From: Escherichia phage vB_EcoM_VR20
Sequence record: NC_028894.1
Direction: 5' to 3' (one strand)
DNA length: 64,000 nt
Below the pieces are notes generated by a model, which saw only the letters and a list, made by a program, of their open reading frames with translations, made no database searches and was not told the DNA's origin. How positions within the stretch are numbered: the stretch's first letter is position 1; every line of letters starts with the position of its first letter. Below are positions 8,548-60,896 of the stretch, in pieces. Both the position numbers and the translations under genes were made by a program.

Positions 8548-9868
8548 AATATGCGTCGTACCTCGCTCGTGTGATTCCTACATAAGCCAACTGGCTCGCT
8601 AATGAAGCTTCAGCCATATGGATGCATGGAGTATAGATGAATGCTTTGTCCACTGAAACGCCCTGGGCCTTGTGGATTGTACTAACCGGAAGAGCACGAA
8701 CTTTCAAGAAGGTCCGGCGAGCTTTCCAGAAGTCTTTCCACTCTGGACGTTTACCAGCGGCTTTCATCTGTTTGTATGTGTCAGCAACTTTAGCCAGATA
8801 TGCCTGGAATTTCGGTTGCTGGTCTTCTGGTAAAACTTTGATGCGGTCAACTTGATATTCTTCATCTTCATCAATTGACTCAACTTCCAGGTCCCAGTAA
8901 TTAATCACTAACTGGTGCGATTCACCTTTACAACGGAGAATTGTGGAAGTGTATTTGCAATCCTTGATGCGAACCAACTGACCATTATTAAAAATGGTTT
9001 CGCTGAATTTCTTACCTTCAAATTCCAGCTCTTTCATGTGTGGCTCTTGCATAACCAGGACTTCATACGGTAAAAATGCTTTATCCGTTTCATATAGCTT
9101 GCGACGAATAATATTATTCAGTTTTTCAACTGATTTATTCGTATACGCATACATCCTGTTTTCCATCAACATATCAGCATCTTTTACAATACTGAAATAG
9201 TTTACCATGAAATCCTTTAAAGCGGTTTGTGAGGTGAAACCCTGTACACCATGACCATCATACATACAGTCACGGAACCAACCCCCATTACGAATTTCTG
9301 TCGCCACTTCAATGATAGGAGCATTGCTTCGCATGACCTCAGTCAGATGAATCTGTTTGAACTTAGGATGCGTAAAGAATGGGCTTATCTTTTGTTGTGT
9401 GCTTCCTGGGTCAACTGGTTGCAGCTGGTGCATATCACCAATCCCAAGAATAGTACACCATTCAGGAACAGAGTTAAGAATAATCTTAAACAGAGACCCG
9501 TCATACATACTTGCTTCATCACAAACCAGAACATTACATTTTGACATGTCAGGCATTTCGCGCTGTTCAAAAACGTTTTGGTCTTCATATGTGGTCGGGT
9601 TAATCTTCAGAATACTATGGATTGTATTCGCTGTTTGACCAGACAATTTAGATAGAACCTTTTTTGCCTGGTGAGTTGGTGCAGCAAGCACAATTCCCAT
9701 AACTCCATTACGCACCAGATGGTCAATGACAAATTTTGTCAGAGTAGTTTTACCTGTACCAGCTGGACCATTCAGAGTGATACATTCCCCTGAACGTCGC
9801 TGAATAGCTTCAGTGATATAATCAAAAGCTTCTTTTTGTCCTGTGTTCAAGTCTTCAAATTTAATCAT
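8540..9868 (-). CDS. dda: Dda DNA helicase (superfamily 1)
   Basis: 442 aa; Walker A GPAGTGKTT; Walker B-like CDEASM; position and size match T4 dda. Confidence 0.85.
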   Translation of the reverse strand: MIKFEDLNTGQKEAFDYITEAIQRRSGECITLNGPAGTGKTTLTKFVIDHLVRNGVMGIVLAAPTHQAKKVLSKLSGQTANTIHSILKINPTTYEDQNVFEQREMPDMSKCNVLVCDEASMYDGSLFKIILNSVPEWCTILGIGDMHQLQPVDPGSTQQKISPFFTHPKFKQIHLTEVMRSNAPIIEVATEIRNGGWFRDCMYDGHGVQGFTSQTALKDFMVNYFSIVKDADMLMENRMYAYTNKSVEKLNNIIRRKLYETDKAFLPYEVLVMQEPHMKELEFEGKKFSETIFNNGQLVRIKDCKYTSTILRCKGESHQLVINYWDLEVESIDEDEEYQVDRIKVLPEDQQPKFQAYLAKVADTYKQMKAAGKRPEWKDFWKARRTFLKVRALPVSTIHKAQGVSVDKAFIYTPCIHMAEASLASQLAYVGITRARYDAYYV

Positions 9869-10164
9869 GCCAATTTTACTCGCTTAACATATAAAGTATC
9901 TAAAACTAATTTCAATTCTCGTGCGTGTTCTTCAGTAGGAAAAACAGTTTTTGTTTCCCGCTTATCAAACCACCATTTTCTGGGAATATACCGTGTTTCA
10001 ATACGTCCCATGCGTAAATAGCGGTTTGTAGTATATAAATAGTTGGCAAGTTCATACTCTGCGCCCGGTTTTGTGGTGTATAAGGTAACCTTTCCATCAT
10101 ACTCCAATGGGCGTTCAAAACCATCTTTATCTTTGTGAACCAGCACATATGCGTAGTACATCAC
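9865..10164 (-). CDS. hypothetical protein
   Basis: 99-aa ORF, start overlaps upstream stop. Confidence 0.4.
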   Translation of the reverse strand: MMYYAYVLVHKDKDGFERPLEYDGKVTLYTTKPGAEYELANYLYTTNRYLRMGRIETRYIPRKWWFDKRETKTVFPTEEHARELKLVLDTLYVKRVKLA

Positions 10165-14453: not shown

Positions 14454-14461
14454 ATTTATAA
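14454..14461 (-). promoter_or_regulatory. candidate T4-type late promoter TATAAATA upstream of soc
   Basis: Plus-strand tatttata, about 33 nt upstream of the soc start codon. Confidence 0.45.
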
Positions 14462-14602
14462 CTTACAATTTGGCGGCTCGCCAGAGTTTTTCAATAATCT
14501 CTCGGTCTATTTCTTTAGTTATTTCATTACGTAATAAGGTAGTAAGGGCTTTCGCCCTTTTCTTATTCAACTTTTTGAGTTGACGTTTATTTAAACGAGC
14601 CA

Positions 14603-15139
14603 TTAATAACCTCGGTCTTGGCGAGCAAAGTTTTCGGCATTTTTCAGATAATACAATTTAAAGATTTCTTCTGCAGTCAGTCCAAGACCATGGAACATGT
14701 TCAGAACAAAGTGCAGGATATCAATCATCTCAAATTTAATTTCGAGCTGGTCTTCAGGAGATAAATCATTAATCAGGGTTTGCTGCATTTCGCCATGTTG
14801 TGCTTTCCATGGTTTCCATACGGCCGAGGCAGCTTTCTCGCCATTGGACATGCCACCTAATGCAGTAATCAGTTCACGGAATTCATCATCAATATAATCT
14901 TTCTGGTTGCGGAGCCAGGTAACAACTTCACCAGCAGTCGCCAGGTTATCAGGATGTTCGTTATATTCTGGTTTTTCTTTAGCCAGACGAACCTGCAATG
15001 ATTTCTGCATATCAAGCATAACTTGCAGTGGGTCAGTGCCTTCAAAAATTGCATTATCATAAGCGCCTTGAGCTTTATCAACACCAGCAATCAGTTGAGA
15101 ACACTCGTTAAAATGAGCCATTATATTTTTCCTTATCAA
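14603..15139 (-). CDS. 56: dCTP pyrophosphatase (MazG-like dCTPase/dUTPase)
   Basis: 178 aa; size and position match T4 gene 56. Confidence 0.75.
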   Translation of the reverse strand: MIRKNIMAHFNECSQLIAGVDKAQGAYDNAIFEGTDPLQVMLDMQKSLQVRLAKEKPEYNEHPDNLATAGEVVTWLRNQKDYIDDEFRELITALGGMSNGEKAASAVWKPWKAQHGEMQQTLINDLSPEDQLEIKFEMIDILHFVLNMFHGLGLTAEEIFKLYYLKNAENFARQDRGY

Positions 15140-15205
15140 TTCATGTTGTTTGTATGTTAATTATATCATATTGGTTTAAAGCATAAATACAAGAAAGGAG
15201 GATGT

Positions 15206-15403
15206 ATGCTAAAACTATCTAGTCTAATTCAAGCCATTAAAGGCAGTCGTAAGCGAACGATTCTGGTCCTTTCGGTACTCTGTTTAGTTCTACTCTGGAA
15301 TTTCATTGTTGCCCCTATTGCATTGGCACATGGTGTTATATTGCCAGTCGTCGCGCTCGAATCAGTTGTAGATGTTTCACTGGCATTAATCGGCCTTATA
15401 TAG
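15206..15403 (+). CDS. small hydrophobic membrane peptide on the plus strand
   Basis: 65-aa ORF with strong GGAGG site 7 nt upstream; predicted transmembrane segment. Confidence 0.4.
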   Translation: MLKLSSLIQAIKGSRKRTILVLSVLCLVLLWNFIVAPIALAHGVILPVVALESVVDVSLALIGLI

Positions 15404-15469
15404 GTGGAACTATGTGAACATTATTCTATCAGATTTGGAAATTAACCAGTAAGAAAGACAAGAAACATC

Positions 15470-15610
15470 ATGGGCTTTTTAACTCTTGATGTTTTCCTGT
15501 GGAACTTACTGGTTGTGCCTATCGCTGCAATACAAGGGGTACACTTACCCCAGGTCACAATGGAACATATCCATTCCATCATCGGTTACTTTACCGGAAT
15601 CCCTTCCTAA
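15470..15610 (+). CDS. small hydrophobic peptide, paralog of 15206..15403
   Basis: Hand translation MGFLTLDVFLWNLLVVPIAAIQGVHLPQV...; LWNLLVVPIA resembles LWNFIVAPIA of the neighbour; weak ribosome-binding site. Confidence 0.3.
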   Translation: MGFLTLDVFLWNLLVVPIAAIQGVHLPQVTMEHIHSIIGYFTGIPS

Positions 15611-16635
15611 ACTTTTGCGTACTTCGAAAGTCGCATTCTTGCCATCAATCCTTGGGCAACGTTATCAGCCATATATGATTCGATTTGTTCAGGGGTTGCC
15701 CCTTCTGATTTAACCATCTCATTTATGTCTTTCGTATGCCATGGTGCATTGTCCCAGAACATAACAGCTTCGCCAGCTTCAACGAGCTTCTTCATACGTT
15801 TAATCGTATCCGGATGTCTTGGCTCGTTGTCCATTACCCACACTCTGGTTTCTGGATAAGGAACGGCTTCTAATGCTAATGTTCCACCGGTTATCGCAAT
15901 GCTGTTAGGGATAAACAAACTATCAATCGGACCTTCCATTACCCATACGCGTTTACGCTCATCAATCTTGTCTACACCATAGACTTTGGAAGCTTCTGGG
16001 TGAGCTTTGATTGTGATATATTTTTGTGGTGCATCTTTGCGAAGAGCTCGTCCTTGGAAAGATTCGATTTCTTTTTTGCCGTTGAAGATAGGAATAACCA
16101 AGCGTGGTTCATTCGTTTCATTCTTATACGTCCCAGGATTAACGGAGTTAACTAATGCAGGCCATTTGTTTGTAAACCATAACCGGTTCCAAACATTGCT
16201 AGGAATACACCGACTTTTTACATACTTAATTATAGGATGCGCTTCTGGTAAAGTATCGAGTCTTTCACAAAAAGCAAGCTCTTCGATAACTGGAGTTTTT
16301 TCTGGTTCTTTCGGAGTTTCTACAACTTCATTACGTTGTCTGCCAAAGGCATTTTCCTTGTACTTCTCAACCATATATTCCCGGTGTAAATCCGGCTCAA
16401 ACTCTTTTATGTATTTGCTTATATGCGTGGAGTAGTCACAGTTAAAACATTTCACGTAAACCGCACCATCAGCCGGATTAGTATACGCCCAGAATCGAGC
16501 CTTGTGTGAATCTTTCTGGGAGTCCCCACAAACCTTGCAACGACAGTTTGCTTTAAATGTGCTCCCGGTGACTTCTCTATAACGTGGTTGATACGATAAA
16601 GCTCTGACCGCAAATTCTTTATCAATATATGACAT
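15607..16635 (-). CDS. 61: DNA primase (zinc finger plus Toprim)
   Basis: 342 aa; CxxC...CxxC zinc finger (CRCKVCGDS...CFNCDYS); size and position match T4 gp61. Confidence 0.85.
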   Translation of the reverse strand: MSYIDKEFAVRALSYQPRYREVTGSTFKANCRCKVCGDSQKDSHKARFWAYTNPADGAVYVKCFNCDYSTHISKYIKEFEPDLHREYMVEKYKENAFGRQRNEVVETPKEPEKTPVIEELAFCERLDTLPEAHPIIKYVKSRCIPSNVWNRLWFTNKWPALVNSVNPGTYKNETNEPRLVIPIFNGKKEIESFQGRALRKDAPQKYITIKAHPEASKVYGVDKIDERKRVWVMEGPIDSLFIPNSIAITGGTLALEAVPYPETRVWVMDNEPRHPDTIKRMKKLVEAGEAVMFWDNAPWHTKDINEMVKSEGATPEQIESYMADNVAQGLMARMRLSKYAKV

Positions 16636-21190: not shown

Positions 21191-21519
21191 CTCTTTTTCA
21201 TTTTAATCTTATCAATTTCATCTTGTATTTGCATTGTAACACACTTTTCTACATGCACTGCAAGCTCCGCTTTGCGGTCTTCGGAAGGGGTGCCGAAATC
21301 AACTGAAACTTTTCCAGATGGTTCAATTTTAATTCCGGTTACGTACACGATGTGACTGGACCCATCGGGAAGTGATAACAGAATTTCCTGTCGTACAGTT
21401 CCCATGGATTGCCGGATAATCTCCAAACTTTTTTCGTAGTAAGGTACAGAAGGAGCCTTAGCTCCCTCCGCATCTTTCTCGAAATTATCTAAATCAGATA
21501 AATCGATATCACTCATCAA
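21175..21519 (-). CDS. 40: gp40-like protein (head vertex assembly) by position and size
   Basis: 114 aa, same length as T4 gp40 and located between uvsX and 41. Confidence 0.5.
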   Translation of the reverse strand: MMSDIDLSDLDNFEKDAEGAKAPSVPYYEKSLEIIRQSMGTVRQEILLSLPDGSSHIVYVTGIKIEPSGKVSVDFGTPSEDRKAELAVHVEKCVTMQIQDEIDKIKMKKRWWKW

Positions 21520-22687
21520 GGTCTTCCATCATATCTAAATCGTTTTCGATGTCTGCCGCAGATGGTTTTGATTTGCCTTCTGGTGCAGAATATTTTTCAA
21601 CTTTCGAACTAATAAGCTCATCAACTTCGGCATCAACAACAGCATTGCTATCGATTGCACCCAGCTGGTAATGACGTTTGATTGCATCACGGAAAGGTTC
21701 GTGCTTGAACAGTGGGCCCCAGAATTCGGTGCAGTTGGTATCTTTTGCGCGCCATGATTTTTCTTCGCGGACCATTTCACCGGTCTCAACATCAAGATAT
21801 TCACGGTTATACCAACCAACTTTCGGTTTCACCACAAATCCGATTTCCATTGCCATATCAAGCAGGCCAGAATACGGGTCAATACCCCCATCGAATTTTA
21901 CATCAATGAAGAATTTACTTTTCTCTTTAACCATACGAGATTTTTCGGCGTTCAGAACAAATTGGAAACCTTCAAGTTCTTTACCAGTTTCTTTAATCTG
22001 GCGTTTACCGATAATGAATACGGTGTCCGCAGAATACATAACACCAGTACCGCCGGTCATAACGGTTTTGCTGTACATCTCAATCGTCTCGATTGTATGG
22101 TTAACCGCGACACAAGGAATATCCTTGATACTAAAGAACGGTGTTACAATACGGAACAGAGATTTCAGGGATTTAGCACGAGTCATATCGCCGACGACTT
22201 TTTCGTTCAATGCATCTTCTGTTTCTTTTTTCGATGCCATGTTACCGATTGAGTCAATAAAGATAATGACTTTTTCGCCACGCTCAATTGCTTCAAGCTG
22301 GTTAACCATATCAACTTTCAATTGTTCAACCGACTGGATTGGTGTGTGGATAACACGTTCCGGGTCTACTTTCATTGCACGAAGATATGCTTCTGTGATA
22401 CCAAATTCTGAATCATAGAACAAACAGATTGCTTCGGGGTATTTGTTCATATATGCAGAGACCATCGTTAAACCCATATTGGATTTAAAGTGTTTTGACG
22501 GACCAGCAAAAATAGTCAAACCTGACTGCATACCACCATCTAGTGCACCGCTGATTGCAATGTTCAGCATCGGGATTTTTGTACGAACTACATCTTTATC
22601 ATTAAAGAACTTGGACTTGGTAAGAGTCGCAGTCATTTTGGATGTAGAAGCTTTAATCAAACGGGATTTCAAATCTGCAATAGACAT
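21509..22687 (-). CDS. uvsX: UvsX recombinase (RecA-like)
   Basis: 392 aa; RecA-fold Walker A GPSKHFKS; size and position match T4 UvsX. Confidence 0.9.
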   Translation of the reverse strand: MSIADLKSRLIKASTSKMTATLTKSKFFNDKDVVRTKIPMLNIAISGALDGGMQSGLTIFAGPSKHFKSNMGLTMVSAYMNKYPEAICLFYDSEFGITEAYLRAMKVDPERVIHTPIQSVEQLKVDMVNQLEAIERGEKVIIFIDSIGNMASKKETEDALNEKVVGDMTRAKSLKSLFRIVTPFFSIKDIPCVAVNHTIETIEMYSKTVMTGGTGVMYSADTVFIIGKRQIKETGKELEGFQFVLNAEKSRMVKEKSKFFIDVKFDGGIDPYSGLLDMAMEIGFVVKPKVGWYNREYLDVETGEMVREEKSWRAKDTNCTEFWGPLFKHEPFRDAIKRHYQLGAIDSNAVVDAEVDELISSKVEKYSAPEGKSKPSAADIENDLDMMEDLDE

Positions 22688-22915
22688 TCATTTTTTCCAT
22701 AGGCACCATTATATTTTTCTCACAGGTTTAAGATAGGATAATTATATCACTGTATTTTAGAGCAATTAACGATTGAATCCACGATTAATTGCACGTTCAA
22801 CAATCTTCCGGGTCTGACGTTTGTCCCACCAGTACATAAAGCCAATACCAAATGCAGACAACAGCCATAGACCAATCAATAACATACCAATCATAATATT
22901 CTTCTCGCAGTTTGT

Positions 22916-23440
22916 TTAGTTAATACCTTGGCGTGCTTTCTCTTTAGCTACACATTTATTAATATAGCTCAGACGGTTTTGAGCAGAACGCTGATACATA
23001 TCGCGGTACTCATTAGCTTTTGGAGAACCCGTCTCCGCTGCCTGATAAGCTTCTGCGCGCATGATGTTTATCTGCATATTGATATATGACATGCAGACCT
23101 GTGAAATCTGGTTAACAGTGTCAAGGTCATTTTGTCGCTTGGTTTCTGCTTCCAGTTTGGCAATGATTTCGTCATGCTTCGCAGCTTGTTCGCGTTTGTA
23201 CTCAATTTCACGTTGAGCATATTTTGCGCAATTGTTTCCACATTGATTATTGGCGCGTTTGTAGATAAGTCCAGTGCCACCTTTGAAATCAAAGGAACCA
23301 TTATGCACCTGACGGTCTGCAGCAATTCGCGCTTTACCAATCTCACTGGCATTAACTACATCACCCTGGTAAGCACAACCAGATAGCAGCATAACAGCTG
23401 CGATAGCTAACTTTTTCATTTTATTTCCTAATTGAAACAT
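22916..23440 (-). CDS. putative lipoprotein
   Basis: 174 aa; signal peptide with lipobox LLSGC; occupies the T4 bgt/42 position. Confidence 0.5.
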   Translation of the reverse strand: MFQLGNKMKKLAIAAVMLLSGCAYQGDVVNASEIGKARIAADRQVHNGSFDFKGGTGLIYKRANNQCGNNCAKYAQREIEYKREQAAKHDEIIAKLEAETKRQNDLDTVNQISQVCMSYINMQINIMRAEAYQAAETGSPKANEYRDMYQRSAQNRLSYINKCVAKEKARQGIN

Positions 23441-23567
23441 TCATAACGGGCTTGGAGCCCCAAAAATACCCAACCCAAAATTAAAGTTGGAATCATATGC
23501 GGAGTCATTATTGCCCAATAGATTGACATACTAAAAAATGCAATCAGTACAATAATTGTAATTATCT

Positions 23568-23810
23568 TCATTTGGTTTCCTTGATGATAATTACTTGTGC
23601 GTTTGATTTACGTTCAGCAACGAGTGCCCAGATAAATGCAATAAACCATCCAACCATTGTCCAACCCAACAGAAGGTTAACAAAGAAGATTCCGCAATTA
23701 CTTTTGGTACCACGCAGTAGCGCGATAATCCACGGCAGAAAATATGCCAATGCAGCCAAGAATAAAGAACCAGCGCCAAGAACAAAAGTACCCGCAATTA
23801 TTGTTTCCAT
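23568..23810 (-). CDS. imm: small inner-membrane protein, Imm-like (superinfection immunity)
   Basis: 80 aa, two predicted transmembrane segments, directly beside gene 43 as T4 imm. Confidence 0.5.
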   Translation of the reverse strand: METIIAGTFVLGAGSLFLAALAYFLPWIIALLRGTKSNCGIFFVNLLLGWTMVGWFIAFIWALVAERKSNAQVIIIKETK

Positions 23811-23854
23811 TTTAATATCCTCAAGTTTGTCTAGTCATCAGTAGTTGATGAAAG

Positions 23855-23886
23855 AATAATACGGCAATCCATTGCCGTTGTAAACA
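23855..23886 (-). promoter_or_regulatory. sigma70-type early promoter, -35 GTTTACA, 17-bp spacer, -10 TATTAT, conserved CATCAACTACTGA leader
   Basis: Minus-strand motif upstream of imm. Confidence 0.5.
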
Positions 23887-23887
23887 C

Positions 23888-26602
23888 TTAAAAGTCAAAC
23901 ATATCAAAAAGAGTTGCTTTCTTTTCGTAATCAACCTTTGCAGCTTCAGAGAAACCTGTCAATGGCTTAACAAAAGTCTTCTGGAACAGTGTGTTGTAGT
24001 CCATCCATTGCAAGACCTGGTCGCGGATTTCAATCGGGAGTTCAATCCCCGATGGCCATGCAATCACAGTTTCACCAAACGGGTTACCGACTTTAAGAGG
24101 AAGCACATACACTTTTTCCCCTTCCATGATTTGCGGAACAGTCTTCAGACCTTTAGTTGCACGCATATAAGCAAGCACACCTTTGATATGAGCCGGGCAC
24201 TTAAATCCAGGGAAACCACCTTCATTATATTTCTGGATGTTGTTAACCGATGATACACCTGCGATGGTCATGTAGTTAAGCTCATTAAATTCCTTATTGA
24301 ATTCCTTGAAGTATGTCTGCAGAGATTCTTCACCTTCTTGCAGCATACGGCGAATACATTCTTTCAGAGCTTTCTGACATGCCTTTGGAGTACTCGACTT
24401 TTGAGTTTCCAGACCCATGATTTTCAATTTTGGAACAGCATATCGTGTGCCTTCCATATCGTACACGTTCAACGCATAACGCTTCTTCGCCGTCCAGAAT
24501 CCACCCACACCCTTAGAACCCAGCGGAGGACATGCAATCGCCTCACGGTCCATAAACATAAGGTGCTGTTTGTTGTTCATGTATTCAGCCAGCTCACGGA
24601 AAGCTTTATCGATTGCCGGTTCCAGACGGTCTTTCGCGAACTTGTCCATGAAGTCAACCAGGTGGTTTGTATCACGGAATTTAGATTCGCCACCAACCTT
24701 TTTAATCAGGTTATCGCATTGGATATAAATGGAGTCAGTATCGCCATAGAATACGTAAGTTTCACCGCTTGTACCGCAAACACCATCGAAGTATTCGTTA
24801 ACTTTACGCTCAATCCACTGCAATGCAAGTTGCCCGAAAGATGTAATCGCGGTTGCATTTCGCAGGTCAAAGTAACGGAACCAGATATTGCCCAGAGCAC
24901 CATAACAACTGTTGATAAGCAGTTTACGGTTAATCTGTGCGGTCATGCCTGCAACTTCTTCCATCTGCGCTTTATACAGCATACCATTTAGGACTGTTTG
25001 ATTCAGACCATGCAGGGCCGTTTTCATATTGTCATCAAAGTCATGGCGATAATCAACTTCAGGCTCGGTTGTACCAGTTCCTGGATTACGCAGAGCTTCC
25101 TTAATCAGTTCACCATTACGTTGAGCCGCAAGCATATAGCCTTTGTGTTCTTTACGCTGATTAAACACCTTGGTGACTTCTGTCGGAATAATACCCGCAA
25201 CATCTTTAAAATACATCATGCCATTTGGAGCACAACTAAATGTATCAGATGGGCGGTCAGCAGTTCCGGCGATGTATTCATGCATTTGCGCAGGAGCAAA
25301 TGAACCGGCAATCGTTTCTGGACTGATGTTAATCTGTCGGATGATGCTCGGATACAGAGATGTTAAGTCACAGCTCATTACATATTTGTATGCGTTCGGA
25401 ATCGGTTCCTTAACAAATGCACCAGGGAACGATTGACGAACATGCGATTTAGTTTCCGGGATAACCTTGTTTTGAGTCTTCAGGCTGTTAAAGATAATCG
25501 CATCCCAAGTTTTGATTGGGCTGAATACAGACTGAATCTGCATCTTTGCATAATAACCCATTGACTGACTCAGGTTAATAAACTGTCGCTTACGGTCAAT
25601 CTGCACAACACGATAAACGTCGATGATGTTATAAGAAATATACCGCTGGTGATTTGATTCGCGCAGTTTAGAAATCGGGCCATCATACGGAAGTTTACCA
25701 ACACCCAGTTCAGATTCTGCAACATAATCCAACGAATAAGACGGTTGGTTTGTGAAGCTGAACTTTTTATACAGGTCCAGATAATCCAGAACAGAGATAC
25801 CCAGAATCTGAATGATTTCTTGTTCTTCACCAAAGCCGTTGTTAATTACTTTAACTTTTGTACGACGATGTGGGCTCAGACGTTTTGCTGTAGCTTCACC
25901 AAATACATTTTTAAGGCGGTTGTAGATATATGGAATATCAAACTTCTCGATGTTCCAACCAGTTAACATAACCGGAGTTTTCTCGTTCCAGAATACCAAA
26001 TACTGCTGGAGCATTTCTTCTTCTGAATCGAAAGCCATATAAACAATTTTTTCCAGGATTTCTTCAGGAACTTCATCACCACCGTCTTCCTGCAGCTTAG
26101 CAGCAATATCAATAGACCATTGCTCCACAGTGGCGTATGGTGAGCCCAAAAGGTCAAAGACATAGAATTTATCGTCTACCGAATCATAGTGCGTCAGGGC
26201 GTCAATAGGGTGACGTGCTTCAGACGGTTCAGGGAACCCATCAGGAGATGTCACCTCGATATCGAAGTTAGCAACACGGATTTTACTTGAATCATATTTG
26301 ATTTCGTGTGGGTAACGGTCGGACAAGTATGCGAGTTTAAAGTCGTCCATACCCATAGCTTCGAGACCCATGTCATTCATTCGCTTCATCCACTGGGATG
26401 CATCACGCATGGAATCGAATTCTTTTTTCACACAACCTTTATTATAGATGTCTGTATACTTTGCAGCCTGGTCTTCGCGGGCATGCATAAACAAGCATGG
26501 AGCATAAGGGATTTCACGAACACGTTCATGACCATTCTTGTCAATATATCGTTCGTGTAGGTTGTCACCGATTTGTTCGATAGTTAAATAAAATTCTTGC
26601 AT
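23888..26602 (-). CDS. 43: DNA polymerase (family B) with 3'-5' exonuclease
   Basis: 904 aa; YGDTDS polymerase motif; FDIE exonuclease motif; size and position match T4 gp43. Confidence 0.9.
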   Translation of the reverse strand: MQEFYLTIEQIGDNLHERYIDKNGHERVREIPYAPCLFMHAREDQAAKYTDIYNKGCVKKEFDSMRDASQWMKRMNDMGLEAMGMDDFKLAYLSDRYPHEIKYDSSKIRVANFDIEVTSPDGFPEPSEARHPIDALTHYDSVDDKFYVFDLLGSPYATVEQWSIDIAAKLQEDGGDEVPEEILEKIVYMAFDSEEEMLQQYLVFWNEKTPVMLTGWNIEKFDIPYIYNRLKNVFGEATAKRLSPHRRTKVKVINNGFGEEQEIIQILGISVLDYLDLYKKFSFTNQPSYSLDYVAESELGVGKLPYDGPISKLRESNHQRYISYNIIDVYRVVQIDRKRQFINLSQSMGYYAKMQIQSVFSPIKTWDAIIFNSLKTQNKVIPETKSHVRQSFPGAFVKEPIPNAYKYVMSCDLTSLYPSIIRQINISPETIAGSFAPAQMHEYIAGTADRPSDTFSCAPNGMMYFKDVAGIIPTEVTKVFNQRKEHKGYMLAAQRNGELIKEALRNPGTGTTEPEVDYRHDFDDNMKTALHGLNQTVLNGMLYKAQMEEVAGMTAQINRKLLINSCYGALGNIWFRYFDLRNATAITSFGQLALQWIERKVNEYFDGVCGTSGETYVFYGDTDSIYIQCDNLIKKVGGESKFRDTNHLVDFMDKFAKDRLEPAIDKAFRELAEYMNNKQHLMFMDREAIACPPLGSKGVGGFWTAKKRYALNVYDMEGTRYAVPKLKIMGLETQKSSTPKACQKALKECIRRMLQEGEESLQTYFKEFNKEFNELNYMTIAGVSSVNNIQKYNEGGFPGFKCPAHIKGVLAYMRATKGLKTVPQIMEGEKVYVLPLKVGNPFGETVIAWPSGIELPIEIRDQVLQWMDYNTLFQKTFVKPLTGFSEAAKVDYEKKATLFDMFDF

Positions 26603-27853: not shown

Positions 27854-28836
27854 TTCATTTCCCCAGCCAGTTGAGCAAACAGATAAGTCAGGTGAACTTC
27901 GGTATTGGCCGCAATGCCATGGTACTGATTATTCTCACCCACAATCTCATACATGCGGATGATACTTGCACCAGTCAGTTTGCCATACATTTCATCAGCC
28001 AGCTTTGCAATGAAGCTTGAATAATCATTTGCATGCTTAGGAGCCAGACCACGGAGAACTTTAAAGTTACGGTCCTTAAGGGCATCAATCACATCATCAA
28101 TTGGCGTGCGATTATTTGTCACGATACTTAAGATACCAGAATCGATAACACCCTTTGCAGAGTAACGGTCAAGCTCGTTAATTGTCTTACGCAGGTCCGG
28201 GAAGTTATGCTTAACCAGAGCAGCAACAACTTTCAGGTCTTCGATTTCAACGCCTTCGTTTTTACATACCGCAACTGCACGATGAATCATCTCTTTCATC
28301 ATGGTAGTCTGGTCAGCCGGAGTTGCTTCACCGAACTTAATGACGCGACAACGAGACTGCAACGGAGTGATGATGCCATCGATATTGTTCGCGGTCATAA
28401 TGATTGAACAGTTGCTCGAATAAGCTTCCATAAAGCTACGGAGGTGCCGTTGTGATTCAGCCAGACCCGCACGGTCGAACTCATCGATAACGATTACCTT
28501 GCGGCGACCTTCGATTGATTTGGATGATGCAAAGCGAGTCAATTCATTACGCACAAAGTCAATTCGGCAATCGGAGCCGTTAACAAACAGCATATCAGAA
28601 TTCGTATCTGCGCACATAGCTTTTGCAACTGTTGTCTTACCAGTACCAGGGGAACTACTGACCAGAATCAAGTTAGGAATCAAACCTTTTTTAACAATCG
28701 CCTCTAATGTTTCTTTATCATGAGCCGGGAGAATACACTCTGATAATGTACCTGGGCGGTATTTTTGTTCCCACATGAAGTCGGATTCGTTGACTGTTAG
28801 ACCGTTAATTACTGTTGCCATTATTATTTTCCTCAT
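27844..28836 (-). CDS. 44: clamp loader large subunit (AAA+ ATPase)
   Basis: 330 aa; Walker A SPGTGKTT; Walker B VIVIDEFD. Confidence 0.85.
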   Translation of the reverse strand: MRKIIMATVINGLTVNESDFMWEQKYRPGTLSECILPAHDKETLEAIVKKGLIPNLILVSSSPGTGKTTVAKAMCADTNSDMLFVNGSDCRIDFVRNELTRFASSKSIEGRRKVIVIDEFDRAGLAESQRHLRSFMEAYSSNCSIIMTANNIDGIITPLQSRCRVIKFGEATPADQTTMMKEMIHRAVAVCKNEGVEIEDLKVVAALVKHNFPDLRKTINELDRYSAKGVIDSGILSIVTNNRTPIDDVIDALKDRNFKVLRGLAPKHANDYSSFIAKLADEMYGKLTGASIIRMYEIVGENNQYHGIAANTEVHLTYLFAQLAGEMKWL

Positions 28837-29383
28837 TAAATTTTTTAACTATTTTATTCAATTCATTGGCTGAATAATTATACCCATAGTTCCGCAAAAG
28901 CGTACTGAACTTACCGCGCTTTGGTTTATCCAGCTCTATCCAAATTTTTAACAGTTCATCATAGTGATTCCAAACTTCAGAACGCTGCCATAACGAACAA
29001 TTCAATTTATGTGTTTTACTAAATGTTCGAGATACACCAGTACGTGATTCAGACATTTGTCTACGAGTTTCTTCTGTATGAAAATCAACTCCACCATTAC
29101 CGCCTGGATGAACATTAACACATTTATTTCCATATTCAATAAGACCTTTGGTAACAATCAAAGATTCATAGTGTTTAGCTTCTTTGAAAGTTTTTACTTC
29201 TTTAATAATTTTTGTATCGAATAACCAAAGTCCAGGAGTTAAATCATTTTCTTTTCGACAAGCTTTAATAAACGTTCCACTGCCGTGATATTCTTCACCG
29301 GTCAAACGATGTCTACCAAAATAATGATAAACATCGTTTGATGCAGTATTTGTTATTTTTGTATGATAACAAATGTATGACAT
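28805..29383 (-). mobile_element. GIY-YIG family homing endonuclease-like gene (Seg-like) inserted between 44 and 45
   Basis: Start trimmed to MSYICYHTKI after a GGAG site; YICYHTKITNTASNDVYHYFGRH GIY-YIG-like N-terminus; HTEETRRQMSESRTG matches the conserved Seg-type core. Confidence 0.55.
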
Positions 29384-29393
29384 TTTATTCTCC

Positions 29394-29411
29394 ATGGGGC
29401 CGAAGCCCCAT
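29394..29411 (-). terminator. stem-loop, AUGGGGC-UUCG-GCCCCAU, after gene 45
   Basis: Perfect 7-bp stem with UUCG tetraloop between the gene 45 stop and the endonuclease ribosome-binding site; no long U-run, so could instead be a stability or processing hairpin. Confidence 0.45.
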
Positions 29412-32693: not shown

Positions 32694-32931
32694 CCTTGAT
32701 GCATGATTCAGCCATATGAATTAATGTCTCTGGAGTATCATCTTCCATTACATTAAAGCTAAATTCCACGGCCCAATCGGTGACTACATAGACTTTGATA
32801 AGTTGACCAGTTTCCCGGTCAGTGATAGCTTCAAACCAATACTTAATAGTATTCGGTTGATTATCGTCGTCAACCACATCACATTCGCGGATATGCTCAA
32901 GCCCCGCTTCATTAAAATCATAAAGTCTCAT
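32668..32931 (-). CDS. small hypothetical acidic protein
   Basis: 87-aa ORF. Confidence 0.4.
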   Translation of the reverse strand: MRLYDFNEAGLEHIRECDVVDDDNQPNTIKYWFEAITDRETGQLIKVYVVTDWAVEFSFNVMEDDTPETLIHMAESCIKDAYYDEDF

Positions 32932-33974
32932 GGTTGCACCTCAAGATATAATTTATTGGCCAATGCTTTGAGAGCTTTTGATTCTTTCTCATTGGCGTCA
33001 GGTAATGCATCGATATATTCTGCCATCATATCAGTTAAGCGTTTTATATCTAACTCTTCATCAGAGTCAGTCGTATCAACACTGTTATCAACCTTATTGA
33101 CAACACGCAATTCATGTACACGCTTTTCTAATTCGGATTCGAACTTGGTCAGGTCTTTATCGACTTTTTCTACAATAACACGGACTGATAAGTCTTTGAA
33201 GTCGTCGTAGTTAATAGTTTCGTTTGGATAGAAAATCTTCCGATGCCAGGTGGTTTCATTCGGAATAAATTTCATCTCTTCGGTTTCGGTATCAAATTCC
33301 CAGAACCCACGCGGGTCGTTCTCATCACCCGCTGTTAATGTCCATGGTGTCCCGATGTACTTAACGTTTGCAGCTTCTGAAATGGTATGAAAGTGACCAG
33401 ACCAAACTTGTTTGTACTTCTTAAGGAAATCAGGTTCAAGTCCGTGGGATTTCAATCCTTTATAGAAATAAAACCCAGTTAATTCCCAGTGACCGATGCA
33501 ATATTCAGCCCCAGAAGTTTTGATGTGTTGATGAATGTCAGTTGCGTTCTCGTCGCACATCCATGGAATCATATCAATCTGGCAACCGTCAAAATCAACA
33601 GTCGTTGGCTTATCGTAGATTTTAACATGGTCATACTTATTCAGGAGCTCAGTGATAGCATTAGGATGAATCTTATTCTTCAGATTCATGTCATGGTTCC
33701 CGACTATCGTGTGCATAGTAATTCCTGCTTCACGAAGGAGTTCCATAATCTCACGGCTGAATTCCATCGTCTTATGCGTTACGGCCTTACGGACGTCAAA
33801 AATATCACCATACTGAATCCAGACTTTAATTCCATTCGCTTTGGAATATGCAATCGCCTGTAAAATACCATCACGTTGAATGTTTTGAGCCCATGGGTCG
33901 TCAGCTTTGACACCTAAGTGCCAATCACCTAAATTTAAAATTTTCATAAGCCAAGCACCGTTATCGCAATGCAA
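32928..33974 (-). CDS. 47: recombination endonuclease subunit (Mre11/SbcD-like phosphoesterase)
   Basis: 348 aa; phosphoesterase motifs LGDWH, GDIFD, GNHD. Confidence 0.85.
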   Translation of the reverse strand: MHCDNGAWLMKILNLGDWHLGVKADDPWAQNIQRDGILQAIAYSKANGIKVWIQYGDIFDVRKAVTHKTMEFSREIMELLREAGITMHTIVGNHDMNLKNKIHPNAITELLNKYDHVKIYDKPTTVDFDGCQIDMIPWMCDENATDIHQHIKTSGAEYCIGHWELTGFYFYKGLKSHGLEPDFLKKYKQVWSGHFHTISEAANVKYIGTPWTLTAGDENDPRGFWEFDTETEEMKFIPNETTWHRKIFYPNETINYDDFKDLSVRVIVEKVDKDLTKFESELEKRVHELRVVNKVDNSVDTTDSDEELDIKRLTDMMAEYIDALPDANEKESKALKALANKLYLEVQP

Positions 33975-34375
33975 AATAAAATTACTGAAATGAACCCGTC
34001 AGGAGTAGAAAAGAATCCTATCCAACAAGCTCTTGTGAATGTGTAGAATGCCATGAATAGCACGACATATCCTAAAAATAATTCCATATACTCTCCTCAG
34101 TTGGTTCATTTTATCATCCCGAATATAAAGCAAAAAGGAAGCACTAGGCTTCCTTTCCAATTAATACACCGTACAGAGGTTCGTGAGAAGACCTGAACTT
34201 GATAGGCTTATAGGTAATAGTACCTTCATTTTCTGCTTTAATACGAGCAGCTTCAAATTGAAGAATCATCTCGTTTTTGTCAGATTTAATCTTATCAAAA
34301 TCCGTCGAATTCGTCATTCATATGACCTCTTAAAAATCTGGATGTTCGTCGTTCATTAGCCACCTGTCCATGTTA

Positions 34376-34576
34376 TCATCGTTGCCACCATTTCTTAAGT
34401 TGATGAGAATCGACCCAAACCTTGGCTACAGGCTCAATCTGAAAAATACCATCAGAATATTGGCCCATCATTTTGTATTCGGTTTCGGTTTGCTTGATAC
34501 AGATATTACCATATGAGCGAAGTCTGAAAGCGGCTCCAACAAGAAGCCGTTTAAAAGGTTTATTTACTAATGCCAT
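34376..34576 (-). CDS. small hypothetical protein
   Basis: 66-aa ORF. Confidence 0.35.
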   Translation of the reverse strand: MALVNKPFKRLLVGAAFRLRSYGNICIKQTETEYKMMGQYSDGIFQIEPVAKVWVDSHQLKKWWQR

Positions 34577-34871
34577 TTACGATTTCCCAAATTTGTTTGC
34601 GAGTAGAATCCCACATCAACTTAATCAGGTCTTCCGTAACGGGTTGGCGGTAAATCCCACGCAGTTTAACAAGAGCATATTTGTATGCTTCAAAATTGTT
34701 TTCCAGCACTGCGCCTTGAGCATGCTTATTCAGTCGTGCAATTTCACGAGCATTCTTTTTCAGAATCTTCGCTGCTTGACTGGTTGCTTCGAGTGCGTTC
34801 GCTTCTTCGAGACGTTCCTGTGCTTCTTCAATCTGCTTATCGGTCAGTTGAGAAATATCTGGAGCTTGCAT
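34560..34871 (-). CDS. hypothetical protein
   Basis: 103-aa ORF. Confidence 0.4.
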   Translation of the reverse strand: MQAPDISQLTDKQIEEAQERLEEANALEATSQAAKILKKNAREIARLNKHAQGAVLENNFEAYKYALVKLRGIYRQPVTEDLIKLMWDSTRKQIWEIVNGISK

Positions 34872-34872
34872 A

Positions 34873-35124
34873 TTAATCCTTGGGAGTTAACTCAATTGTA
34901 AAATATAGATTAGCATTATCCACATGATAACGGTAATCAACGTTATTGTCCGGAGAAGTAAATTCCAGATTCCGGACGTTTAAAGGGTCGATATCAATTG
35001 GAAGACCTTTTATGTCTCGCAGATAAAGTTTAATGAAATATGGGAGAGCCGTAAAGTCTTCCTCGATTTTATCTAAAAAATCGGTAATATCAAATTGATG
35101 TTCCATATAAAAAATCCAAATCAC
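34873..35124 (-). CDS. small hypothetical protein
   Basis: 83-aa ORF. Confidence 0.4.
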
Positions 35125-35647
35125 CCTCTTTATCTTTGGCGCTCTTATCAGACCCTGGCGCTTTAACTAAAGAGGATTCGTACTGTGTCATTTTGTCATA
35201 GATGTCCTGGATAAATGTTTCATCAGCCAGAGCCACCATATCGTCGTCACGTGAATCATATACGTTATGGACGAAGTAGCTATATTTCTTTGCCATTTCT
35301 TTACGTTCTTTTTTGATACGCTGAACGAAAGCATTGAAGCAAGCCATTGTTATGTAAGCATGTGGATTATCGTATTTTGTTTCGTCGAAGTTGTGAAGAC
35401 CTTTTATTGCGGCCTCAATTCCGTCTGCTATCATTTCTTGCTTCCAGGATTGGGTATATCCGGAGAAGTTGAAACGTTTGCTAAGACCTTCGGCTATAAG
35501 CATAATCGCCAGACCAATAACATCGTTCTGGCGAATAATTTTGTTCGGGTCGGTGTTCGCATTCAGCTTCTGTTTCCACTCCGAAATAGCTTTCAAAAGC
35601 TCTTTATTATTTACATAGTTATTCTTGGTTAATTTAATTTCGTTCAT
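35090..35647 (-). CDS. 55: late-transcription sigma factor
   Basis: 185 aa; long stretches match T4 gp55 as I recall ([55 protein letters not shown]). Confidence 0.9.
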
Positions 35648-38944: not shown

Positions 38945-39415
38945 TTAATCATGTTTCCACACCCCATCGGTATTTGACCAAAGTCGCTGATTATCTGACC
39001 CTCGCCACAGTTTTTTGGTCGGAAGATTTTTCTCATACTTCCCATCAATAATAACATCAACATATTTAAGCATTTCTAGTTGTTTAATATCTTCAAACTT
39101 ATATCCTGTCCACATCCAAATGCTTTTATTGGGATAAAGATTTTTAATAGTTTGAACCACAGAGTGAATAACATCTCGGTTATCAGGATAGAGAGGGTCT
39201 CCTCCAGTTATAGTTAATCCTTCTATATAATCATTATTCAAACATTCAATTAATTGTTCTAGTGTTTCACCAGTGAATGGAACGCCATTTCTAGCATTCC
39301 ATGTTGATTTATTATAACACCCTTCGCATTTATGCAAACAACCTGTAACGAAAAGAACGACCCTACATCCAGGGCCATTCACAAAATCGCAAGGATAAAT
39401 TCTATCATAATTCAT
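38945..39415 (-). CDS. nrdG: anaerobic ribonucleotide reductase activating protein (radical SAM)
   Basis: 156 aa; CxxxCxxC-type cluster motif (GCLHKCEGC). Confidence 0.85.
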   Translation of the reverse strand: MNYDRIYPCDFVNGPGCRVVLFVTGCLHKCEGCYNKSTWNARNGVPFTGETLEQLIECLNNDYIEGLTITGGDPLYPDNRDVIHSVVQTIKNLYPNKSIWMWTGYKFEDIKQLEMLKYVDVIIDGKYEKNLPTKKLWRGSDNQRLWSNTDGVWKHD

Positions 39416-41229
39416 TGATGTTTAACCCTATGCATGATTTCTTTATTTTTGCCGAGATTAAATCCACGTTCGTTCGGATTCCCTAAATAGCCGCATGTTC
39501 TTCTTATTGTGTTCATCTTTTTAGGGTCAGTTTCTCCACAAATAGAACAAACAAATCCGTTTTCAGTAGGAGTCATTTCATGGGTACTTCCACACGTAAA
39601 ACATTTATCTACTGGCATATTAACACCAAAATAATCTAAATGTTGTGCAGCATAATCCCATACAGCCTCAAGACCTTTTAAGTTATTTTTCATATCAGGA
39701 AGTTCAACATAAGAAATGTGACCGCCTGTCGCAATGAAATGATATGGGGCTTCACGAGAAATCTTTTCAAACGGGGTAATATTTTCTTCTACTGAAACAT
39801 GGAAACTGTTAGTGTACCAGCCTTTATCGGTAACATCTTTTACACTTCCGTATTTTTCGGTATCAAGTTTACAGAAGCGATAGCACAGGTTTTCAGCAGG
39901 AGTAGAATACAAACTAAAAGCAAATCCGGTTCTTTCAGTCCACTGCTTAAGACGAGCATTCATTTTAGTTAAAATTTCTTGTCCAATATCACGACCGACA
40001 AGAATATTCAATTCGTGAATACCAATGTATCCCAAAGACACTGAACTTCTACCGTTTTTAAATAACTCAATTATATCGTCATCAGGTTTAAGACGAACCC
40101 CGAATGCACCTTCTTGGTAAAGAATAGGAGCAACAGTCGCTTTAACTCCTTTTAAGGAACTAATTCTACACATCAAAGCTTCAAAACATAAATCCATTCG
40201 CTCATTGAACAATTCAGTAAATTTCTGTTCATTGAACTGTGTTCCAATATAAGAATCTAACGCAATACGAGGAAGATTTAATGTTACAACACCAAGATTA
40301 TTACGTCCATCAAGAATTTCATTACCAGTCGAATCTTTCCATACGCCCAAGAAACTACGACAACCCATTGGAGAAACAGGAATAGATGAACCAGTGATAG
40401 CTTTGTTATTCTTAGCTGAAATGATATCAGGATACATTCTTTTGCTTGCACACTCTAAAGCAAGCTGCTTAATATCATAGTTTGGGTCGTCTTTATAAAG
40501 ATTAACACCTTCTTCAACGAACATAACAAGTTTAGGGAAAATAGGAGTTATCCCATCACGACCAAGACCTTTAATACGATTTTTCAGAATTGCTTTCTGA
40601 ATCATTCGTTCAGTCCAGTCAGTTCCAGTACCAAATGTAATTGTCACAAAAGGAGTCTGACCATTTGAACTAAAGAGAGTATTTACTTCATATTCATAAG
40701 CTTGGAATGCATCATATACGTCTTTTTCTGTTTTAGATTGAGCATAATTCAACGCATCAGTGATTTGCCATTTTTCCGCGTCCTCAATATGTTTCGCATA
40801 GGTACGTTTAACATAAGGAGAAAGTACTTTATCTACATTCGCAAAAGTCGTTCCGCCATATTGATGGGAAGCAACCTGTGCAGTAATTTGTGCCATAATT
40901 GCAGTAGCAACACTGATTGATTTAGGAGTTTCAATCTGTGCATTACCGAGCTTAAACCCGTTCTCAAGCATTCCTTTTAAATCTACTAAACAGCAATTAG
41001 TAAATGGAAGAGCAGGGGAATAATCAATATCATGGAAATGAATAATTCCGCTTTCATGTGCTTTCATAATAAAAGACGCGACCATATTTTTGGCAATGTG
41101 TTTAGATACAATACCAGCCATAAGGTCACGTTGGGTTGGAAAAACACGAGAATCTTTATTAGCATTCTCGTTTAAAAGGTCTTTATTAGTTTTATGAATC
41201 AATCCTTCAATTTCGTTTTCAATTGTCAT
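39412..41229 (-). CDS. nrdD: anaerobic ribonucleoside-triphosphate reductase
   Basis: 605 aa; C-terminal CxxC zinc site and RRTCGYLG glycyl-radical motif; uninterrupted ORF. Confidence 0.9.
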   Translation of the reverse strand: MTIENEIEGLIHKTNKDLLNENANKDSRVFPTQRDLMAGIVSKHIAKNMVASFIMKAHESGIIHFHDIDYSPALPFTNCCLVDLKGMLENGFKLGNAQIETPKSISVATAIMAQITAQVASHQYGGTTFANVDKVLSPYVKRTYAKHIEDAEKWQITDALNYAQSKTEKDVYDAFQAYEYEVNTLFSSNGQTPFVTITFGTGTDWTERMIQKAILKNRIKGLGRDGITPIFPKLVMFVEEGVNLYKDDPNYDIKQLALECASKRMYPDIISAKNNKAITGSSIPVSPMGCRSFLGVWKDSTGNEILDGRNNLGVVTLNLPRIALDSYIGTQFNEQKFTELFNERMDLCFEALMCRISSLKGVKATVAPILYQEGAFGVRLKPDDDIIELFKNGRSSVSLGYIGIHELNILVGRDIGQEILTKMNARLKQWTERTGFAFSLYSTPAENLCYRFCKLDTEKYGSVKDVTDKGWYTNSFHVSVEENITPFEKISREAPYHFIATGGHISYVELPDMKNNLKGLEAVWDYAAQHLDYFGVNMPVDKCFTCGSTHEMTPTENGFVCSICGETDPKKMNTIRRTCGYLGNPNERGFNLGKNKEIMHRVKHQ

Positions 41230-60309: not shown

Positions 60310-60896
60310 TTACGGCATTCCTCAATAAAAGAGTTCAATGTATTTTTCTTATTGATATCGTCATATAGCTTTTTAACTTTAGAAATACGAAAAGGTACTT
60401 CAATAGCCATAGTCCATAAAAATGATGCAATAAGTCCAATAGCAGCAGAAGAAACACACGCGCCCATTACAGCTACAGGTGCTTCATTTTTACCTGTCAA
60501 GAAAAACAACAGGATTGGTAAAAATAAGATTCCAGCCCACGCATAAAACCTGGAACAAATTAACTTATCAAATTCATCTTTCCAGGTACGAAATCCATAT
60601 TTCTTGCTATAAGAAATTAATGGGTCAGGTGTCTGTTCTTTGAGTGGTTCTGGTTGATGTCCATTAATGATGTATCCCATTTTATATTCCTTAATTAAAA
60701 GCTCTTTCACATGACGATTGCATCGCGACCAATCAACATTTTCCACCTTGATTCCTTCATCACCATCATCAAGGTTCGCCCAATATTTTTTGGTAATCAT
60801 AAATTCGTCTCTTGATACAATTATACCTGCATTTTCTGCCCGGCGGATGAAGTTTACATCAACACCCATGCACCCAGGTTCATACAGCATTACCAT
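60306..60896 (-). CDS. membrane protein
   Basis: 196 aa with two hydrophobic segments in the C-terminal half. Confidence 0.45.
   Translation of the reverse strand: MVMLYEPGCMGVDVNFIRRAENAGIIVSRDEFMITKKYWANLDDGDEGIKVENVDWSRCNRHVKELLIKEYKMGYIINGHQPEPLKEQTPDPLISYSKKYGFRTWKDEFDKLICSRFYAWAGILFLPILLFFLTGKNEAPVAVMGACVSSAAIGLIASFLWTMAIEVPFRISKVKKLYDDINKKNTLNSFIEECRK

Follow-up and report, generated by a model that had tools for sequence, protein, structure and literature searches.

In phage T4, the interval between the recombinase gene uvsX and the immunity gene imm contains the genes for the beta-glucosyltransferase (b-gt) and for the deoxycytidine monophosphate (dCMP) hydroxymethylase (gene 42); the T4 record (NC_000866) reads uvsX-segA-b-gt-42-imm-imm.1-43, in agreement with a preliminary description of the stretch studied here. 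This stretch, hereafter the window, comprises 64,000 nucleotides of the genome of Escherichia phage vB_EcoM_VR20 (NC_028894.1), and its uvsX-imm interval (22688-23567) contains neither gene, which raises the question of how this phage modifies its cytosines. The observation is confirmed and, as a bare observation, is already documented for the genus Gaprivervirus; the new lead is a substitution of Asp for Asn at the pyrimidine-specificity position of the thymidylate synthase Td, a protein encoded outside the window. It is probable, with the nature of the base deduced from the genes, that Gaprivervirus virion DNA contains 5-methylcytosine (5mC), formed through a pathway resembling that of phage XP12 by a Td retooled through a single codon.

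Missing modification genes and retained exclusion of cytosine

The window belongs to the T4-like genus Gaprivervirus (Straboviridae, Tevenvirinae). Its interval 21500-24000 shows 98% nucleotide identity to phage VR26 and 95-97% to VR7, to Shigella phage SP18 and to some 25 further Gaprivervirus records, and VR7, VR26 and SP18 do not differ from it in gene order; the window as a whole is collinear with positions 1-63112 of VR26, in blocks of 83-97% identity separated by several indels, and is about 90% identical overall. Whole-genome searches were performed on the complete genome of VR26, as a close relative, and the 64-kb window was searched for the source phage.

T4 gp42, b-gt and Dam gave no tblastn or phmmer match in the window or in complete VR26; the positive controls Imm, gp56 and SegA were matched in the same searches. 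A hidden Markov model (HMM) of the thymidylate synthase (TS) superfamily, built from Td-type and gp42-type proteins and run on six-frame open reading frames (ORFs) of at least 50 residues, retrieved nothing from the window and only td from complete VR26 (1.1e-131), with T4 gp42 (8.5e-70) and JS98 gp039 (1.9e-58) as positive controls. JS98 gp038-gp042 had no tblastn match at E <= 1e-2 in the window or in complete VR26, and Pfam analysis of the ten largest uncharacterised ORFs of the window revealed no TS or glycosyltransferase domain. The preliminary description had seen no TS-like or glucosyltransferase ORF in the window, and tblastn, phmmer, the TS-superfamily HMM and Pfam all bear this out.

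The a-gt slot of the window (33948-35089), located between gene 47 (32928-33947) and gene 55 (35090-35647), contains no ORF of 110 residues or more, but only small ORFs similar to a-gt.2 to a-gt.5; a-gt is missing also from the VR26 annotation, T4 a-gt itself not having been used as a query, and dam is not present between genes 56 and 61 of the window. With a-gt, b-gt and dam missing, all three T4 DNA-modification genes that act outside the nucleotide pool are absent. The VR26 annotation lists none of 42, a-gt, b-gt and dam, and retains gp56, alc, denA, denB, gp1, cd, td and frd. The absence of gene 42 despite the presence of DenB, Alc, DenA and the deoxycytidine triphosphatase (dCTPase) was stated for Gaprivervirus in two surveys, where it was called unexplained (PMC8056088, PMC12115623).

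The simplest answer would be a plain loss, leaving ordinary cytosine as in RB49, or the location of gene 42 and a transferase in the remaining two-thirds of the genome. The latter had been suggested in the preliminary description, together with the outcome that would reduce the observation to a rearrangement, namely ordinary glucosylated 5-hydroxymethylcytosine (hmC) DNA made by relocated genes. The window does represent 64 kb of a genome of about 170 kb, and T4-like phages with unmodified DNA exist. However, no gp42-type gene is found in complete VR26 by tblastn, phmmer or the TS-superfamily HMM, the whole-genome search of VR26 did not reveal gene 42 with a glucosyltransferase elsewhere, and both genus surveys agree (PMC8056088, PMC12115623). 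In addition, the cytosines of VR7 are modified (PMC6326788), and Alc, DenB and gp56 are kept in the clade, unlike in RB49-type phages (PMC12115623, Table 4). Plain loss or relocation is accordingly very improbable.

The other suggestion of the preliminary description, a pathway of a different type, is instead supported, because the retained gp56, Alc, DenB, DenA and gp1 only make sense with modified cytosine; the VR7 cytosines are reported to be modified, and its DNA unglycosylated, in a study of the BREX system (PMC6326788). Ordinary cytosine is still excluded in this clade, even though it lacks an enzyme of the gp42 type and shows no detected homologue of the sugar transferases of T4 or JS98/RB69.

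Thymidylate synthase and the proposed 5-methylcytosine pathway

Where thymidylate synthases have PFNIASY, the product of VR26 td reads RSVDVFLGLPFDIGSY, and D187 of the protein corresponds to position 177 of E. coli ThyA, with Asp in place of Asn at the pyrimidine-specificity position. The ThyA reference reproduced the expected residues at 58, 80, 94, 143, 146, 147, 169 and 177. Apart from the substitution, VR26 Td keeps E58, W80, Y94, L143, C146, H147 and D169, together with the C-terminal TS tail, and the solved T4 TS (1TIS), which aligns with it residue for residue, has Asn at the specificity position. The motif LPFDIGSY is conserved in each of the six td genes studied from Gaprivervirus (VR26, SP18, VR7, TH41, CJ20 and TH40); these ORFs are intact, with nucleotide identity down to 80%, and they have either GAC or GAT as the codon for Asp, a single transition away from the AAY of relatives. 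In a database of 5.8 billion proteins, Asp was found in only four of the 120 nearest Td clusters, all of Gaprivervirus type, the other 116 having Asn; among the 150 nearest Td representatives at 50% identity, it was found in seven. As td of the source phage lies outside the window, we infer its Asp from the membership of the phage in the clade.

According to published diagnostic rules, Asn at position 177 indicates deoxyuridine monophosphate (dUMP) and Asp dCMP as substrate; L143 indicates methyl and Asp or Glu hydroxymethyl transfer, while D169N is typical of the 5-hydroxy-dCMP synthases (PMC13326640). Reading positions 143, 147, 169 and 177 in this order, E. coli ThyA and the Td proteins of JS98 and UFV-AREG1, two gene 42-positive phages, have L/H/D/N, as does Td of RB49, which has neither gene 42 nor Alc. 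The hydroxymethylase T4 gp42 has D/T/D/D, JS98 gp039, of the 5-hydroxy-dCMP synthase type, has E/T/N/D, and the TS of PaMx74, a phage reported to be fully 5mC, has L/P/D/D. Gaprivervirus Td has L/H/D/D, as does Td of the Acinetobacter phages ZZ1 and 133, in which gene 42 is absent and Alc is present. Thus, the dCMP-methyltransferase signature (D177 with L143 and D169) was seen in the genomes of six Gapriverviruses and in four protein clusters; in every case tested, phages with Alc but without gene 42 have Asp, and those with gene 42, or with neither, have Asn.

RB49 Td is annotated with 410 residues (8871-10103 of the sequence piece used) and has the catalytic signature of an ordinary TS. Since this length exceeds the 264-315 residues of the other TS proteins considered here, an insertion, or an intron- or intein-like element missed in the annotation, may be present in RB49 td.

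Asp at the specificity position is common to T4 gp42, and a Td with Asp-177 might therefore produce 5-hydroxymethyl-dCMP, with bare hmC in the DNA as in a T4 agt/bgt mutant. Alc, DenB and gp56 function with hmC in T4. VR7 was fully blocked by BREX, like the phage T4-147 (PMC6326788). Against this reading, Td has L143 and H147 where the hydroxymethylases have Asp or Glu and Thr (PMC13326640), and it keeps the C-terminal tail of thymidylate synthases; its gene is joined to frd end-to-start, an arrangement that fits a methylation producing dihydrofolate (DHF). The supplement of the BREX study, which describes pre-treatment with the T4 beta-glucosyltransferase and the use of methyl-sensitive enzymes, calls T4-147 "hydroxymethylated" and VR5 "glycosylated", but VR7 just "modified" (PMC6326788). 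Bare hmC is on the whole unlikely.

In the pathway proposed for 5mC, gp56 (14603-15121) would degrade deoxycytidine triphosphate (dCTP) and diphosphate (dCDP) to dCMP. Td with Asp, the sole TS-family enzyme, encoded outside the window, is predicted to methylate dCMP to 5-methyl-dCMP with methylene-tetrahydrofolate, since it combines Asp at 177 with every residue needed for reductive methylation; the start of td overlaps the end of frd, so that the DHF released by Td could be recycled by the adjacent Frd. The gp1 kinase and the host nucleoside diphosphate kinase would then take 5-methyl-dCMP to 5-methyl-dCTP (5m-dCTP), and its incorporation by the polymerase would give virion DNA with 5mC and no sugars, as in XP12 and PaMx74, while Alc, DenA and DenB would act on the cytosine-containing DNA of the host. 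Thymidylate might come from host ThyA and/or from the phage Cd, which is retained in VR26, through the deamination of 5-methyl-deoxycytidine nucleotides. A precedent is offered by the XP12 TS homologue and by five of the seven metaviromic TS homologues predicted from the residue at the N177 position, all of which, on co-expression with T4 gp1, gave 5-methyl-dCMP in vivo; in the same work, a deaminase supplies thymidine triphosphate, so that no second TS is needed (bioRxiv 10.1101/2024.12.05.627091). The TS of PaMx74 is encoded in a thyA-cd-frd cassette. No earlier claim of 5mC in Gaprivervirus or Straboviridae was found in the openly accessible literature.

Two further explanations dispense with Td. 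According to the first, put forward in the 2021 and 2025 papers (PMC8056088, PMC12115623), an enzyme unrelated to TS and so far unrecognised makes a non-canonical base, and the Td substitution is incidental. Candidates could be sought among the clade-specific ORFs without a Pfam match, for instance VR26_128, 129, 139, 194 and 230, or in the DUF7275/DUF7277 protein at 61636-62595. Ten VR26-specific and ten large window ORFs were examined with Pfam as possible novel modification enzymes and were rejected: no TS, glycosyltransferase or methyltransferase domain was detected, the only domains in these twenty being DUFs, Endo VII, T5orf172, motB, RlaP-like and y05I. The candidates scanned thus show no nucleotide-modifying domain; moreover, such an enzyme is not needed, because the Asn-to-Asp change occurs in all the Gaprivervirus td genes and clusters examined and in 133 and ZZ1, tracking the gene 42-negative, Alc-positive state. 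This explanation is judged to be quite improbable.

According to the second, a DNA C5- or N4-methyltransferase would act on the cytosines of the replicated DNA, and the "modified cytosines" that block EcoRII and SalI in VR7 (PMC6326788) are compatible also with this possibility. Yet no such enzyme is annotated in VR26 and T4 Dam has no homologue there, although no dedicated whole-genome methyltransferase profile scan was made; post-replicative methylation would also leave the retained gp56, Alc and DenB, and the Td substitution, unaccounted for, and there is little chance that it is the answer.

Several points weigh against the conversion of dCMP to 5-methyl-dCMP by Td. The searchable literature yielded no nucleoside analysis for a Gaprivervirus, and the BREX paper speaks only of "modified cytosines"; two of the seven predicted enzymes gave no 5-methyl-deoxycytidine, which makes the signature of three or four residues an imperfect one (bioRxiv 10.1101/2024.12.05.627091). 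For the source phage, the state of td, a gene beyond the limits of the window, is extrapolated from its clade. A coliphage with 5mC throughout its DNA would be expected to be attacked by McrBC, McrA and Mrr. The VR26 annotation names no arn, and only the hypothetical protein VR26_268, of 54 residues, is found between asiA and the Arn.2 homologue, the position occupied by arn in T4. Furthermore, Alc, DenB and gp56 are assumed to spare 5mC DNA and 5m-dCTP, and the supply of thymidylate is hypothetical, as there is no dedicated dUMP-specific TS, though Cd is kept.

The same combination of features is found in the Acinetobacter phages 133 and ZZ1, which the 2021 survey singles out alongside Gaprivervirus (PMC8056088). 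The genome of phage 133 (159,801 bp) contains a single TS-family gene, together with gp56, alc and denB, and no gp42-type or transferase homologue was found in it by whole-genome searches that included the TS-superfamily HMM. Both td genes (15517-16464 in 133 and 101-1033 in ZZ1, numbered on the sequence pieces used) have Asp at the specificity position. Like Gaprivervirus, these phages combine gp56, alc and denB with a single TS-family gene (Asp-177, L143 and D169) and the lack of a gp42-type gene; they differ in host and lineage, in the contents of the uvsX-imm interval, and in Td, which is 45-46% identical to that of VR26. The two phages probably represent a second T4-like lineage with cytosine methylation at the nucleotide level.

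A broader statement, held with a confidence slightly above even, would then be that an Asn-to-Asp codon change, having occurred independently at least twice (in Gaprivervirus and in 133/ZZ1), made a T4-type Td the sole pyrimidine C5-methylase of the phage. Fully 5mC T4-like phages would thus exist, in which 5mC, like hmC, is compatible with the self/non-self toolkit of T4 (dCTPase, Alc, endonucleases II and IV), and in which thymidylate is obtained from the deamination of 5-methyl-deoxycytidine nucleotides or from the host.

The puzzle posed by Gaprivervirus is that these phages have everything to destroy cytosine-containing DNA and no known enzyme for a substitute base, and the substitution in Td makes it directly testable. 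The matter has practical weight, because the surveys withhold a judgement on the safety of Gaprivervirus in therapy, the risk of transduction being unclear (PMC8056088, PMC12115623). If the proposal is true, these would be the first T4-like and the first coliphage examples of complete 5mC substitution, in which a single point mutation and the subsequent loss of the cassette exchanged one modification system for another. The phages would be predicted to be sensitive to BREX, as already seen for VR7, and to defences of the McrBC and MspJI types, and the annotation "thymidylate synthase" in T4-like phages without gene 42 may be wrong.

The uvsX-imm interval and the mosaic structure of the window

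The interval lies in a series of genes encoded throughout on the minus strand, in the order 41, 40, uvsX, a 42-residue ORF, the lipoprotein gene, a 47-residue ORF, imm, 43, regA, 62 and 44. Its left border is uvsX (21509-22687; PF21134, 3.6e-39; phrog_97, 1e-103) and its right border imm (23568-23810), which codes for the superinfection immunity membrane protein (PF14373, 9.8e-18); the latter has a score of 64.2 bits against a gathering cut-off of 27.9, shows 51% identity to T4 Imm and 68% to JS98 Imm, and adjoins gene 43, the DNA polymerase of 904 residues (23888-26602), so annotated in VR26 and VR7. The assignments of uvsX, gp40 and Imm are supported by both Pfam and PHROG. Gene 56, coding for the dCTPase/dUTPase, was also correctly recognised in the preliminary description: it is located at 14603-15121 on the minus strand, its product is 68% identical to T4 gp56 (E 8e-77), and it is the sole enzyme of a cytosine-replacement pathway encoded within the window.

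Between uvsX and imm, the preliminary description had placed a lipoprotein gene of 174 residues and one possible short membrane ORF, in place of gene 42 and b-gt. The two genes are indeed absent and the lipoprotein is present, but the tiny membrane ORFs number two, and the lipoprotein is likely to have 167 residues. A segment of 228 bp next to uvsX (22688-22915, with no strand assigned) is the junction that, from the T4 and JS98 layouts, corresponds to the cassette site of relatives. It includes the 42-residue ORF (22766-22894, minus strand), with one N-terminal transmembrane helix and a basic tail, for which PHROG and Pfam searches gave no match. Residues 13-42 of this ORF found identical (100%) tblastn matches in only 15 records of the phage collection, all of Escherichia phages, including the Gapriverviruses VR7, VR26, CJ20 and TH40, and the ORF sits in a segment absent from SP18-type genomes; it is variable, its status is doubtful and it is possibly not a gene. 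The 47-residue membrane ORF (23428-23571, minus strand; phrog_3610, 7.6e-27) is called "gp42.1" in the VR7 and VR26 annotations. A scan of the interval for promoters and terminators returned generic consensus matches only.

The lipoprotein gene (phrog_1754, 2e-47) occupies 22916-23440 on the minus strand as an ORF of 174 codons, and 22916-23419 from the likely start at Met8, which is also the start in the VR26 annotation. From Met8, the N-terminus reads MKKLAIAAVMLLSGC and the signal peptide ends in a lipobox, MKKLAIAAVMLLSG followed by Cys, that fits [LVI][ASTVI][GAS]C; the lipobox residues LLSG with the following C (Cys15), as well as the motif QCGNNCAxYAQRE, are invariant in an alignment of 10 homologues. 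By its lipobox, the protein is a lipoprotein of bacterial type, with predicted lipidation. In an AlphaFold2 model from 10 sequences, the C-terminal half forms a long helical hairpin (predicted local distance difference test, pLDDT, 70 overall and above 90 for the C-terminal helices), the model from the single sequence being poor (pLDDT 61); a Foldseek search of BFVD with the model found only the JS10 orthologue and no functional lead, and phrog_1754 and phrog_3610 are both of unknown function. The protein is 100% identical to VR7 ORF049c and VR26_045, and its homologues were found in 125 phage records, from Gaprivervirus, Dhakavirus and phages of Enterobacter, Serratia, Kosakonia, Erwinia, Klebsiella and Edwardsiella, at about 23-31 kb in the listed records that are numbered from rIIA.

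The lipoprotein was considered, and rejected, as a replacement of the modification cassette, as the preliminary description had implied. It is 48-54% identical to JS98 gp043 (166 residues), and the 47-residue ORF is 56% identical to JS98 gp044 (36 residues); in JS98, a member of the sister genus Dhakavirus, the order is uvsX, gp038, gp039, gp040 (a kinase), gp041, gp042, gp043, gp044, imm and 43, where gp038 is similar to RB69 orf047c, and gp039, a gp42 homologue, to RB69 orf048c. Since JS98 carries both orthologues beside imm together with the cassette (gp038-gp042, about 4.2 kb), the lipoprotein and the small ORF are conserved neighbours of imm and not replacements. The uvsX-imm interval is the usual cassette slot of Straboviridae, empty here: modification genes amounting to about 4.2 kb are missing, and the lipoprotein gene, the small ORF and imm persist as a conserved block. 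The lipoprotein is encoded by an unremarkable, conserved accessory gene; that it acts in superinfection exclusion, beside imm, is only a guess. Its first 50 residues or so, which comprise the signal peptide, the lipobox and GxVVNxSExGK, weakly resemble T4 Imm.1 (tblastn, 4.7e-4), whose gene is located on the opposite side of imm; the RefSeq product name of T4 imm.1, "iduronate sulfatase", looks spurious.

Compared with VR26, the window is a mosaic, with nrdD and nrdG, a different set of homing endonucleases, no segF and a divergent gp56. An insertion of 2.4 kb relative to VR26 (38.8-41.2 kb), considered as a modification module, was rejected because it consists of nrdG (156 residues) and nrdD (605 residues), at 38945-41229; these genes occur also in SP18-, TH40- and TH41-type Gapriverviruses. 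The segF gene, which lies beside gene 56 in VR26 (15105-16311), is absent from 14460-15121 of the window, and gp56 of the window is 72% identical to that of VR26 and 68% to that of T4, the VR26 and T4 proteins sharing 80%. The difference in gene 56 looks like a SegF-associated co-conversion from another T-even-type donor, which would imply that phages whose cytosines are modified differently can exchange their gp56 alleles. An ORF of 196 residues between genes 44 and 45 (28805-29395), with weak similarity to SegA/NUMOD3 (phmmer 1.9e-4, Pfam 0.008) and no counterpart at the same site of VR26, is probably a mobile homing endonuclease. Clade-specific genes include that of a DUF7277+DUF7275 protein of 319 residues (61636-62595) and an ORF of 228 residues without Pfam match (60890-61576); VR26_129, of 215 residues, which separates the two in VR26, is absent from the window (junction near 61640).

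Comparison with known modification systems

With the glucosyl-hmC system of T4, Gaprivervirus shares gp56, gp1, Alc, DenA, DenB, Cd and Frd, the general order of the map and the uvsX-43 locus. It differs in lacking gp42, the alpha- and beta-glucosyltransferases and Dam, and in the Asp of Td, where T4 Td has Asn (1TIS); among the hallmarks of the T4-type pathway, gp56 was found, and neither a gp42-type enzyme nor a glucosyltransferase of either kind.

The RB69-type genes of the uvsX-43 slot form a cassette for arabinosyl-5-hydroxycytosine (PMC13326640, 2026 NAR). The same slot is concerned in RB69 and Dhakavirus, and JS98 has the block of lipoprotein, small ORF and imm as in the window; the five genes of the cassette, for an arabinosyltransferase, a TS homologue with D169N, a kinase, a phosphatase and a UDP-arabinose enzyme, are absent here, and the sole TS-family protein of the clade has D169.

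The closest likeness is to the 5mC replacement of XP12 and PaMx74, with the same predicted chemistry and the L143/D169/D177 signature shared with Gaprivervirus Td; the conversion of dCMP to 5-methyl-dCMP was shown for XP12 and the metaviromic homologues, and is predicted for Gaprivervirus Td. The components of that system, namely the TS, dihydrofolate reductase, dCMP deaminase and deoxynucleoside monophosphate kinase, are all present in the VR26 genome. VR26 Td, however, is only about 26-28% identical to PaMx74 TS; Gaprivervirus Td is a direct orthologue of T4 Td, and the switch thus appears to be an independent event affecting a single codon (AAY to GAY). Moreover, unlike in XP12 and PaMx74, the enzyme of Gaprivervirus, for which 5mC is predicted from the genes, is embedded in a T4-type system for the exclusion of host DNA.

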